From positions 32,001 through 96,000 of the IMG/VR virus record IMGVR_UViG_3300040801_003693: a stretch of 64,000 nt of DNA. One strand, written 5' to 3'. This DNA comes from a virus. Position numbers and translations under genes: made by a program. Positions 60,270 through 63,431 of the stretch are shown piece by piece; position 1 is the first letter of the stretch; every line of letters begins with the position of its first letter. The notes beneath the pieces are model-generated. The model had not been told where the DNA came from. It saw only the letters and a list, made by a program, of their open reading frames with translations, and did no database searches.

Positions 60270-60749
60270 TTAAGTATTAATTAATTCTAAATTAAATATT
60301 TCAGCACAAATATTACCAAGATATACTGGAGCATTTGGAGCTAATTCATATCTAAAGTATTTAGGATTAGTCTCAATCTTTCCATTCTTATTAAAGATTA
60401 AAGGCTTCCATACCACTTGATTTAATTGTGGTTGTTTATTCTTGATTGTAATCTTGTCGTATTCAATAATATCAAATGAATGTGGATAGTCCCTTTCTCC
60501 TGGGAGATAAGGATAGTGATGAATCCATTTAGTATTAAGTGGATTTAGATTAAAATCATGAATAATTAAAGGTGTAATAAATTCTACTGAATTAGTAATG
60601 CTAGTTCCAGTATTTGAATCTGTCATAATAACAATTGTTTCAGATTCAAATTCTACTAGTTTTAATTGACAATAAGAATCCCAATTACCAAATCCATTTC
60701 CAAATCCTTTCCAATTATATTTTGTATTAACTAAAATGTTATATTCCAT
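60270..60749 (-). CDS. hypothetical protein
   Basis: 159 aa, AGGA RBS; NTGTSITNSVE...WIHHYP. Confidence 0.7.
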   Translation of the reverse strand: MEYNILVNTKYNWKGFGNGFGNWDSYCQLKLVEFESETIVIMTDSNTGTSITNSVEFITPLIIHDFNLNPLNTKWIHHYPYLPGERDYPHSFDIIEYDKITIKNKQPQLNQVVWKPLIFNKNGKIETNPKYFRYELAPNAPVYLGNICAEIFNLELINT

Positions 60750-60787
60750 TGCGGTTTTATCCTACTTGAAAATTTAATTAAATAGCA

Positions 60788-60824
60788 GTTTCAATCCCTG
60801 ATAGGGATTAGAATTAATTTCCAC
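60788..60824 (-). CRISPR. solitary 37-nt cyanobacterial type I-D-like CRISPR repeat
   Basis: GTGGAAATTAATTCTAATCCCTATCAGGGATTGAAAC on the - strand: ATCCCT/AGGGAT stem and ATTGAAAC 3' end; no second copy seen in the window. Confidence 0.8.
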
Positions 60825-60847: not shown

Positions 60848-60999
60848 TTGACCGAGCTTTGAAGCCGTGCGCCCCACGGACTTTTTATCAAATTGTTTTT
60901 TGAAGTTGCAGGCTGCATTTCTGCATTTAATTGGATTACATTTCATCTCACACTTTTCATTTCGGGTAGGGTGTGAGACTTCCCGCCGAGAAAGTTAAA
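60848..60999 (-). mobile_element. mini non-autonomous IS200/IS605-like element
   Basis: - strand begins TTTAACT...hairpin...GATGAA and ends GTCAA; similar to 61712-61892. Confidence 0.5.
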
Positions 61000-61321
61000 G
61001 TTTCATCATTTTTTCAAAGTACCTCATCTTATAAATCAACATAACCAAAGATGGAAGTTCTGGATTTATTGGTTTATAAATCTCAAAGTCCTGGTAATCC
61101 CATATATGATTAGGATTACCTTGACAGCCTACAGTGTAAGCGTGCAAAAACTTATAGCCTTTAATTTTCTTTTGACTACTTAGGTATTTTTTGACTGCTT
61201 CTTCCGGACTTATTTCGCAGCACAAACGTGGTGTTGTAGGAAGACTAAAGTATGAATTAGTTTCAGGACAGGCGGTTAGCATAAAAATAGTTTTTACGCC
61301 TTCTAAAATTTCTGATTTCAT
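60995..61321 (-). CDS. small partner protein (candidate immunity) of 61318..61710
   Basis: ATGA overlap with the upstream stop. Confidence 0.65.
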   Translation of the reverse strand: MKSEILEGVKTIFMLTACPETNSYFSLPTTPRLCCEISPEEAVKKYLSSQKKIKGYKFLHAYTVGCQGNPNHIWDYQDFEIYKPINPELPSLVMLIYKMRYFEKMMKL

Positions 61322-61710
61322 TTAGCAATACATCTCCAACTTCCATTTGATTTTTGTTCAACACGGACAAATTCTAATCCATGCATATCACTTTCTCTTT
61401 GACATCTTTCTTCTGCTTGTTCTTGGGTTAATTCTTTCCCATATATATTGATAACCTGCTCTTCCTCAAAAGCGTCTGGTTCATCAATCATCTTGCGTAC
61501 ATTACCTTTCTCGTCTGCAAAGTATTTCTTCTTTGCAGTGCGGTTATGCCAAACATAAGAAGTCACTCCACCAATAATAGTAGTGCCCAACAAAACACAA
61601 ACCTTCGCGCAAACCAAAGGCGCAATAACTATCGGCACTGCCTCAACTTTACGAGGCATATTTAAACTAACTGCTAATCCAACAGCCAGCATTTCTGATA
61701 AAATCTTCAT
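61318..61710 (-). CDS. secreted Cys-rich protein, paralog 4
   Basis: start at ATG 61710; first about 74 aa highly similar to 36017..36418, C-terminus divergent. Confidence 0.8.
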   Translation of the reverse strand: MKILSEMLAVGLAVSLNMPRKVEAVPIVIAPLVCAKVCVLLGTTIIGGVTSYVWHNRTAKKKYFADEKGNVRKMIDEPDAFEEEQVINIYGKELTQEQAEERCQRESDMHGLEFVRVEQKSNGSWRCIAK

Positions 61711-61711
61711 A

Positions 61712-61892
61712 TTGAGTAACCCGCCTCTAACGGGTGAAAGATTGCCGCGATAATACCAACGTGTCCAGCGTTGGTTGCGGTATATTTTTTTACCATTCAA
61801 AATACTTCCACGGCAATCAATATCCGGTTCGTAATTCATCCCAACACTTCTCTTACGGGTAAGTGTGGGACTTCTTACGATTGAAAGTTAAA
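61712..61892 (-). mobile_element. mini non-autonomous IS200/IS605-like element
   Basis: TTTAACT...CCCACACTT/AAGTGTTGGG hairpin, GATGAA, and 3' hairpin CCCG-TTAGAGG-CGGG followed by TTACTCAA. Confidence 0.55.
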
Positions 61893-62129: not shown

Positions 62130-63101
62130 TTATCTTAAATAAAAAGGATTGTACATTTGAGAGCCATCCTCACAAATATTTTTTATTTGCTGCACCCGGA
62201 TAGAAATTGCATCAGAATAATTTACTTCCATCTTTGTATTGGGATATTTAAATTTGTATTTTAATTTGTTGCTAAAAGATTGTGCTAATTTCTTTTGAAT
62301 AATTTCAGGAAGTACATCCTCAGTGTATTCATTAAAATCAGAAGCGCATATAGTTTTCAGATTGAATACTTTAATTAATATAGGATCGATTAGATAAGGC
62401 GACATTTCAAATTTAAGATCGGCAACTAATGCTCCACATTTGTGCTTCTCACTATGCCTAAATAAGGATATTTCTTCACTGACATTATTAGCAATCAAAG
62501 TAATTCTTATTTGCTTTTCTAATAAACTTTCTAGAAAGACAATACACATTTGTGCTATCGAATCTTTTCTCTTACCGTAATATTCGATATCATCTATAAA
62601 GAATTTTCCTAGTAAAGCATAATATTTTGCATGAATTAATCCTAAGTACCCGTTGATTGAATCTATCCCTTTGCTTAATTGAATTTGCTGTAAACTGTAA
62701 TTATAAAATATTTTAAATTGTTTTAATTCCTCTTCGCTAATAGAATTTCTATCACGATACTGTCTTCTTAAAAAGTTGTACCTTCTTTTCGTAACTAAAA
62801 TTGATTGTTGCTTCACAATGTCTAATCGTAAAGCATTATAGTTAATAGCATAACTATTAATTGCTTTTCCAAACTTATATATCCCCCCAGGAGAAGAGAT
62901 AATTACAGTAATGTTCTTATCAATTAAAAGCTGTAATACTCCAGAGCTAATACTTATATCTGAAGTATTTATACATAAGCAAACATTGTTTAAGTCTTCA
63001 ATTGTTTCTAATATATATTCAGGATTAACATAGCCTGTTTCTAGTTCTGTACTGTCAAGAGATATTATTTTAGAGAATGGATAATGATTACTGCTATTCA
63101 A
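62130..63101 (-). CDS. cas1: degenerate Cas1 homologue (probably inactive)
   Basis: ISISSGVLQLLIDKNITV, IDSINGYLG...AKYY, LFRHS, ALVADLKFEMSPYLID, YNPFYLR follow the Cas1 pattern; two catalytic acidic residues appear substituted. Confidence 0.75.
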   Translation of the reverse strand: MNSSNHYPFSKIISLDSTELETGYVNPEYILETIEDLNNVCLCINTSDISISSGVLQLLIDKNITVIISSPGGIYKFGKAINSYAINYNALRLDIVKQQSILVTKRRYNFLRRQYRDRNSISEEELKQFKIFYNYSLQQIQLSKGIDSINGYLGLIHAKYYALLGKFFIDDIEYYGKRKDSIAQMCIVFLESLLEKQIRITLIANNVSEEISLFRHSEKHKCGALVADLKFEMSPYLIDPILIKVFNLKTICASDFNEYTEDVLPEIIQKKLAQSFSNKLKYKFKYPNTKMEVNYSDAISIRVQQIKNICEDGSQMYNPFYLR

Positions 63102-63110
63102 ATTAATTTC

Positions 63111-63431
63111 CTAATTAACTATTTGAAACACTGCTGAATAATTTAGAAGAAATTGCATTAAAGAATCTTGAGAACCAGCATAAAGATAGTTTCTATGTCC
63201 GGCTCTAGAAGGAACTTGTTTGGAAAAGATTATAAATTCATTAATTAAACCTAACTTTTGTTTATCTAATATATTTGAAATTAATACATGAGTAAAAGAA
63301 TCTTCTCTTGTTTGATGTTCTCTACCAATGGCTATACCTTTATTATTATTTAACCAAGGTTCTGCATCTGTATAGTTGATAAACTTATATACTTTAATTT
63401 TATTGTTCATTTTTATAAACTGCTTTTCCAA
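63111..63431 (-). CDS. hypothetical protein
   Basis: about 100 aa, upstream of cas1, lacks Cas2 motifs. Confidence 0.55.
   Translation of the reverse strand: MEKQFIKMNNKIKVYKFINYTDAEPWLNNNKGIAIGREHQTREDSFTHVLISNILDKQKLGLINEFIIFSKQVPSRAGHRNYLYAGSQDSLMQFLLNYSAVFQIVN

Follow-up and report, generated by a model that had tools for sequence, protein, structure and literature searches.

Here, we propose that the gene at 62130..63101 (minus strand) of the window, the whole 64,000-nucleotide stretch analysed here (bases 32001-96000 of the linear 135,938-base IMG/VR virus record IMGVR_UViG_3300040801_003693; CheckV completeness 78%), encodes a structurally intact, catalytically disabled Cas1 that belongs to a distinct clade of Cas1 paralogues, a conclusion in which we have high confidence. 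The 323-amino-acid product has the Cas1 fold, carries leucine and phenylalanine in place of glutamate at two of the three metal ligands, and keeps the histidine (His216). We call the gene cas1' and its product Cas1', which is our own label for degenerate Cas1 paralogues that trail CRISPR arrays. As for its role, we tentatively favour, with a probability of roughly 40%, a non-enzymatic binder that would interfere with type I-D spacer acquisition in the host, beside a decoy made of repeat RNA.

The gene starts with a TTG codon that has an AGGA 8-9 nucleotides on its 5' side, and all 323 codons are open. Its product matches Pfam PF01867 (E 2e-11, 44 bits against a cut-off of 22.3), with residues 43-263 aligned to positions 37-267 of the 283-position profile. 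The best NCBIfam matches are to the generic cas1 model (53.6 bits, below its cut-off of 71.7) and to the type I-D model cas1_CYANO (49.7 bits), and both lie under the strict equivalog cut-offs. From a 47-row alignment, AlphaFold2 (AF2) models the protein with a predicted local distance difference test score (pLDDT) of 85.7 and a predicted template-modelling score of 0.85; this alignment was used because single-sequence prediction was uninformative (pLDDT 39.7). Every chain listed by Foldseek against the PDB is a Cas1 or a casposase, with 290-314 columns aligned, a best E-value of 1.5e-11 and TM-scores of 0.56-0.71. Model and matches agree on the two-domain Cas1 architecture (N-terminal beta domain, C-terminal helical domain), and a search of the ESM Atlas returned generic Cas1 clusters only. 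The profile match, the model and the structural matches thus support the initial annotation in calling this a full-length Cas1-like protein.

Active-site residues were mapped by three agreeing routes: a phmmer pairwise alignment against 7cr6_A, MAFFT and hmmalign. INGYLG of the phage protein occupies the place of the canonical RGxEG, with glutamate replaced by leucine (L153); FRHS aligns with the canonical LH, with His216 retained; and DLKFEMSP aligns with DLMEEFRP, with the fourth-position glutamate replaced by phenylalanine (F231) and the glutamate that follows (E232) retained. We take the aligned E, H and D-or-E positions to be the Cas1 metal ligands, following work on the Escherichia coli and Pseudomonas aeruginosa enzymes. 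Of this triad the phage protein has kept the histidine alone, exactly the pair of exchanges and the retained residue that had been proposed at the outset.

The lost ligands are a property of a whole branch of Cas1 proteins. When 1.84 billion representatives were searched exhaustively with phmmer, 59 matches reached E <= 0.001, including the query (P0001, the phage protein itself), and a word-based protein search with 1272 candidates returned the phage protein itself only. The sole close relative is P0002, encoded on a 2.2-kb contig of a cyanobacterial metagenome-assembled genome (MAG), with 39% identity (E 3.5e-57). Among the other matches, P0013, P0007 and P0006 lie on contigs of 182.6, 52 and 39 kb, and P0009 comes from an Okeania MAG. 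Both acidic ligands are gone from 16 full-length phmmer matches (P0001 to P0010, P0013, P0021, P0025, P0027, P0045 and P0047), and the fragments P0014 and P0015, whose span does not reach the first motif, lack the fourth-position acid of the third. P0033 combines a degenerate first motif with a canonical third one and was excluded from the clade rows. In a 61-row tree, which left out the fragments, fused proteins outside 300-370 amino acids and P0033, a single branch, with a Shimodaira-Hasegawa-like approximate likelihood ratio test (SH-aLRT) value of 98, separates the 16 degenerate rows from the rest. A second tree of 50 rows was made with 21 motif columns removed, using 22 of the 29 canonical phmmer rows and adding three Nostoc copies, a plasmid copy and the Cas1d of the same Nostoc locus; its 20 degenerate rows form one side with an SH-aLRT of 100, and P0001 and P0002 fall inside the clade (99 for the pair, 97 for the 17-row set that holds them). 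Both trees are quick IQ-TREE searches without bootstrap, and P0001 and P0002 sit on a long branch. A hidden Markov model (HMM) made from 12 clade members scored held-out members at 263-344 bits, against 179 bits for the best canonical protein among the phmmer matches and 224 bits for the best canonical protein among 401 cyanobacterial genomes.

Since the ligand loss is shared by one branch whose cellular members lie in or beside CRISPR loci, the protein was inactivated before the phage captured it. The supposition in the initial annotation of a normal Cas1 that was exapted and disabled by the phage was not borne out: the loss is common to the clade, including five chromosomal copies and one plasmid copy from Nostoc. 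The phage gene is instead a long-resident copy of a paralogue that was already non-catalytic and array-linked. Its base composition (28.4% GC and, at third codon positions (GC3), 22.8%) resembles that of the phage (32.2% GC for the record, 20.4% GC3 for its tail sheath gene) and not that of the Nostoc cas1' genes (40.6% GC, 35.6% GC3). Identity of the protein to Nostoc Cas1' is just 22-24% (21-24% across Nostoc Cas1' and Cas1d). Taken together, the matching composition and the low identity suggest that the phage acquired cas1' long ago.

How much of the active site is left in the clade? When the 16 degenerate full-length rows are set column by column against 31 canonical rows, positions E153 and E231 are glutamate in 100% of the canonical rows and in 0% of the clade. 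Other canonical residues have gone as well (K103, D181, S188 and G190 to 0%, R234 to 31% of the 16 rows), fold-core residues are kept (G151, G154, Y160, L225, D228, N247, D255 and F256), and the clade has acquired conservation of its own, at P265 (81% vs 0% in canonical rows), Q305 (88% vs 19%) and M186 (81% vs 19%). Because two metal ligands and several other residues of the active-site region are lost, the protein probably acts by binding rather than by cutting or joining. A very unlikely alternative is that it is still an enzyme, a nuclease or transesterase with a metal site rebuilt from His216, Glu218, His220, Asp228 and Glu232. His216, D228 and E232 are indeed retained, and residues 211-240, the old histidine loop and the helix of the former active site, form the window in which the phage protein and P0002 are most alike (21 of 30 residues identical, compared with 117 of 323 over the whole length). 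However, both canonical acidic ligands have become hydrophobic, several more canonical positions are gone, and the histidine of the triad is retained in just 10 of the 16 full-length clade members.

The cellular members tie the clade to CRISPR arrays. In all six intact cellular copies with readable DNA (five Nostoc genome loci and one Nostoc plasmid), cas1' adjoins the trailer end of an array of the DR5 repeat family. The locus L201 encodes, in order and on one strand, an 826-amino-acid protein, Csc2, Csc1, Cas3', Cas6, Cas4, Cas1d (441 bits, above the cut-off) and Cas2, followed by three repeats, 42 nucleotides and cas1'; the type I-D locus is complete, and a second Cas1, a dead one, stands behind its array. 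L202 has the same junction up to the end of its contig, and L203 has cas2 with a broken cas1, seven repeats and then cas1'. In L204, cas1' follows four repeats, a degenerate fifth and the conserved 42-nucleotide linker, and in L200 it follows 18 repeats split by a group II intron and two further degenerate repeats; the flanks of L200 and L204 hold no cas genes. The intron (L200 7636-9235; Rfam RF00029, with a reverse transcriptase/maturase open reading frame (ORF)) divides the array into 8 and 10 repeats. On the plasmid of Nostoc sp. HK-01, a small array of four repeats and a truncated fifth points at the 3' end of cas1'. Two broken plasmid copies have no repeat within 12 kb. The linker from the terminal repeat to the ATG of cas1' is conserved in L201 (9904-9945), L203 and L204, which suggests that cas1' is co-transcribed with the array and released by Cas6.

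Among the five Nostoc copies, the ratio of nonsynonymous to synonymous substitution rates (dN/dS) is 0.15-0.19 in seven pairs with dS of 0.17-0.24, the pairs not being independent, and 0.34-0.43 in three near-identical pairs (5-12 differences). The lower values indicate that the family is kept by selection, and for these cellular copies they contradict neutral evolution, which the initial annotation had named as an outcome that would speak against it. Its view that the intact frame is not a sign of simple decay agrees with the open frame and confident fold in the phage and with this purifying selection in Nostoc.

The family is nonetheless rare. Searches with the clade HMM found five intact copies in four of 127 genomes of the genus Nostoc (326-333 bits) and no clade member in 401 genomes of Nostoc's order, in 144 genomes of Microcoleus's family or in 401 genomes across the cyanobacterial phylum, where the best score was the canonical Cas1 at 224 bits; the zeros in the two 401-genome samples are soft, as five candidates were scored per genome. 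Canonical motifs are present in 64 of the best 65 loci from the phylum sample. The exception, from Microcoleus sp. K1-B1 (L128, G003:C91:4431-5444), was placed in a canonical clade by the 61-row tree; it has a degenerate first motif and an alanine at position four of the third, and looks like an independent case of active-site loss. The PLSDB plasmids hold three copies: an intact one on Nostoc sp. HK-01 plasmid1 (49% identical to P0004) and two broken ones, on Nostoc sp. ATCC 53789 pNsp_a (in two pieces) and Calothrix sp. PCC 7716 p1 (C-terminal half only). A scan of genome contigs (A5) found no relative, and a metagenome scan returned four weak, unrelated loci (L157-L160). Against the INPHARED phage records, P0004 gave three weak Cas1-like matches only (23-27% identity), in MT836695.1, MT836291.1 and MT838203.1, three short contigs from faecal samples labelled 'Bacteriophage sp.'.

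Such patchiness, with four of 127 Nostoc genomes positive, none in the other genome samples and two of the three plasmid copies broken, would fit a functionless passenger, the still undecayed remnant of a CRISPR trailer fragment captured from a host. We consider this highly improbable for the phage gene, as its 323-codon frame has stayed open despite a base composition fully adapted to the phage, its fold is confidently predicted, and P0002 shares both 36-39% full-length identity and the clade-typical residues with it.

The record that carries the gene is a tailed cyanophage. An adjoining 745-amino-acid ORF is a tail sheath protein (phrog_30392, E 9.7e-182), 40% identical to that of the Microcystis phage Ma-LMM01 group and 44% to that of Microcoleus phage My-WqHQDG; all 14 phage records matched by the sheath are cyanophages, and baseplate and lysis genes lie further along. 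The cas1' gene now sits within an accessory region of unannotated genes. Pfam and PHROGs searches of its neighbours gave nothing that explains it and no other cas gene, and a tblastn search of the neighbours against the Nostoc and plasmid cas1' loci gave no match at E <= 0.01. A six-frame search of the whole record, 78% complete as it is, found no match to PF09827 (Cas2) or PF01930 (Cas4) at E <= 1, so that the claim of no cas2 or cas4 nearby holds over all 135,938 bases, and a 14-mer spacing scan of the same record found no CRISPR array. The description of this Cas1 as "lone" stood only in part: it is without cas2, cas4 or an array in the record, but a CRISPR repeat lies 1.3 kb away.

This solitary repeat of 37 nucleotides (60788..60824, minus strand) is on the same strand as cas1' and 1306 nucleotides downstream of it. 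It matches the Rfam family CRISPR-DR5, of the cyanobacterial type I-D style, with 45.3 bits (cut-off 40); it is the only such repeat in the record, and shuffles of the window give an expectation of zero. Its 22 nucleotides at the 3' end are identical to arrays in many filamentous cyanobacteria, and the last 19, with one position degenerate, occur in at least 120 stretches in species-representative genomes, nearly all of them from filamentous cyanobacteria (genera include Nostoc, Calothrix, Microcoleus, Okeania and Scytonema). Among full repeats, the nearest come from a cyanobacterial MAG (4 of 37 positions different) and from Okeania sp. KiyG1 and others (5 of 37). The repeat family is a hint that filamentous cyanobacteria may be the hosts. 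Metagenome contigs covering the phage cas1' come from two runs of one microbial mat sample and show zero differences; these runs also contain arrays whose repeat is 3 of 34 aligned letters off the phage repeat. A spacer in an array of Microcoleus sp. B3-D7 (L049 1358-1393) matches the phage record at 31 of 36 positions (G000:C1:135078-135113, within a 425-amino-acid ORF), which suggests that the spacer targets a related phage and may hint at the host lineage. Between the repeat and the ATG of a 159-amino-acid ORF (60270..60749) lies a spacer-sized stretch of 38 nucleotides (60750..60787, minus strand), for which searches of phage and plasmid collections gave chance-level matches only and no convincing protospacer. 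The first 11 nucleotides of that ORF match the 5' end of the repeat at 8 positions, as a decayed terminal repeat might.

Could the repeat be a coincidence? If so, Cas1' might be a DNA-binding or recombination accessory unrelated to CRISPR, its fold reused on branched or end structures in phage replication or recombination. The setting amid unannotated accessory genes with no other cas gene would suit this, as would the great divergence of the phage protein from the cellular members. We regard it as quite unlikely, because a DR5 array adjoins cas1' in every readable intact cellular copy and, in the phage itself, a DR5 repeat stands 1.3 kb away where shuffles of the window predict none.

In light of this, what might Cas1' do in the phage? 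In the binder reading that we favour, it would be a non-catalytic protein with a Cas1 fold whose likely ligands are those of Cas1, namely repeat or leader DNA, prespacer ends, or the proteins Cas1d, Cas2 or Cas4. When made by the phage while it infects a filamentous cyanobacterium that has a I-D system, the protein would weaken the acquisition of spacers or lead it astray, and the transcript of the nearby repeat may act in parallel as a decoy for Cas6/Cascade. This model draws on the fold retained without the chemistry, the tie between the clade and I-D arrays, and the I-D-style repeat beside the phage gene. It draws also on precedents from other viruses. As their sources describe them, the Cas4 homologue of a rudivirus and the Cas2 homologue of a Bathyarchaeia virus are each a single adaptation protein in a virus without the rest, and both are discussed as inhibitors of adaptation (PMC11656645; PMC10541130). 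The same logic of mimicry would apply here, with the difference that the viral Cas2 keeps its metal site whereas the present Cas1 is disabled. Similarly, in the account of solitary repeat units and RNA anti-CRISPRs (Racr), a single CRISPR repeat stands in a virus near candidate anti-CRISPR (Acr) genes, and Acr genes are enriched within 1 kb of such viral repeats (PMC10651486); the likeness concerns the neighbouring phage repeat and not the Cas1' protein.

A more far-reaching version, which we consider somewhat unlikely, would make Cas1' a dedicated non-catalytic component or regulator of I-D acquisition, encoded behind the array at its trailer end, produced by read-through of the precursor CRISPR RNA and released by Cas6 at the terminal repeat. 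Cyanophages would then have co-opted it as the first Cas1-derived anti-CRISPR, one that blocks the formation of memory and not interference.

Several observations weigh against the binder reading. The conservation of residues 211-240 between the phage protein and P0002 implies that a bound ligand there still matters, which could mean that the ligand or some chemistry has been retained. The N-terminal 50 residues are the lowest-confidence part of the phage model (block pLDDT 44-73), and in canonical Cas1 the N-terminal domain forms the dimer and the Cas2 contacts. An identity of 21-24% to Nostoc Cas1' and Cas1d makes mimicry of a host interface doubtful. The array is upstream of cas1' in five of the six cellular loci, and in the phage the repeat is downstream. 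With the record 78% complete, its missing remainder could hold a cas2 gene or an array. The gene comes from a single phage: no INPHARED phage record matches P0001, and pattern scans of IMG/VR (A3, P0013, P0007, P0006, P0021 and P0003) found no relative. Finally, the binding partner, the effect on acquisition and the benefit to the phage are what we infer, and the hosts themselves retain Cas1', within their CRISPR loci and under purifying selection, which fits a role in favour of immunity at least equally well. The dominant-negative inhibitor of the initial annotation may still describe the phage protein, but this retention by hosts complicates the idea.

That last point leads to another option, that Cas1' helps I-D arrays and serves the phage itself in doing so, the phage repeat unit providing a guide that host Cas proteins process or load, for competition with other viruses or for gene control. 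The cellular role would then be, for example, that of a non-catalytic partner of Cas1d or of a factor for the trailer end or for array maintenance. Consistent with this, cellular Cas1' is encoded in the host's own loci, on the array strand and right after the terminal repeat, under purifying selection, and the phage repeat precedes a spacer-sized stretch of 38 nucleotides with a gene behind it. On the other hand, 136 kb of phage sequence hold a single repeat only, the 38-nucleotide stretch has no convincing target in the phage and plasmid collections, and the order of gene and repeat in the phage is unlike the cellular order. We therefore judge this option to be unlikely, and retain the non-enzymatic binder as the preferred reading.

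How does the phage protein relate to known systems? It resembles Cas1d of Synechocystis (Cas1-Cas2, PDB 7cr6/7cr8) in its two-domain fold (Foldseek TM-score 0.65-0.67 to 7cr6_D), in having 7cr6_A as its best PDB sequence match, in its cyanobacterial setting and in its linkage to the same DR5-type repeats. It differs from Cas1d in lacking two of three metal ligands and several conserved positions, in coming from a record without cas2 or cas4, and in that the Cas1' branch stands apart from all canonical Cas1 sampled. Casposases have intact catalytic residues and belong to casposons, mobile elements with terminal repeats and a family B polymerase; here, the catalytic residues are lost and the neighbouring genes include no polymerase family, terminal repeats not having been searched for. 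Archaeal Cas1-solo group 1 (Krupovic et al. 2014/2016), as summarised in PMC9755687, likewise comprises Cas1 homologues that lie apart from a normal adaptation module and whose catalytic residues are not conserved, and is judged there to be inactive and probably vestigial. By that description, Cas1' is set apart from it in belonging to bacteria (cyanobacteria and their elements), in its linkage to arrays and in evolving under purifying selection.

Very few Cas-derived anti-CRISPR candidates are known. A term search of a 2024 review of CRISPR parts in mobile elements returned four Cas-derived anti-CRISPR examples, none of the four from Cas1 (PMC11656645). Term look-ups in the 2025 classification paper (PMC12669027), a review of type I-D (PMC10212523) and a paper on I-D transposons (PMC9881144) gave no inactive or second Cas1, and phrase searches of the literature gave no account of a degenerate, array-linked Cas1' clade. 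If phage Cas1' does block acquisition, it would represent a new route of immune evasion that acts on the formation of memory. Apart from the phage, there is in Nostoc a conserved, selected, dead Cas1 paralogue right after the terminal repeat of I-D arrays, in one locus (L201) alongside a normal cas1-cas2 pair. Cas1' thus gives a testable handle on the control of I-D adaptation and raises the prospect of Cas1 pseudoenzymes as structural or regulatory subunits.

Directly upstream of the phage cas1' is an ORF of 106 amino acids (63111..63431, minus strand), whose stop is separated from the start of cas1' by 9 nucleotides, and the two probably form one operon. It matches no protein family in Pfam or PHROGs, and by tblastn it has no relative next to cellular cas1' genes. 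The idea of a hidden Cas2 in this ORF was rejected, on the lack of such a relative and of any PF09827 signal in the six-frame search. An 11-mer at 63101..63111 (minus strand) overlaps the TTG start of cas1' and holds the AGGA ribosome-binding site; its second copy in the 136-kb record occurs only inside the 5' part of the solitary repeat. As the Nostoc cas1' genes have a similar sequence at their ribosome-binding region, the meaning of the 11-mer is ambiguous. At another gene start, outside the window (G000:C1:3456, minus strand), the first 20 nucleotides match the 5' 20 of the repeat at 18 positions, perhaps only by chance given AT-rich codons.

Between cas1' and the repeat is a two-gene cassette (60995..61839, minus strand; 173 and 108 amino acids) flanked by direct repeats that bear hairpins. 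One sediment-metagenome contig joins 60940 to 61856 and so skips a 915-nucleotide cassette, a weak observation from a single contig at 80% likeness. Without these 915 nucleotides the distance from cas1' to the repeat would be about 390 nucleotides rather than 1306, the neighbourhood used for Acr genes being about 1 kb. The cassette (60940-61890 region) appears to encode a secreted cysteine-rich protein and a partner, and its relatives occur in seawater and sediment runs without relatives of cas1'. A few kb from cas1', a DUF4325 (STAS-like) protein (L194 2996-3349, plus strand; G000:C1:96996-97349) is encoded next to a phrog_34837 protein.

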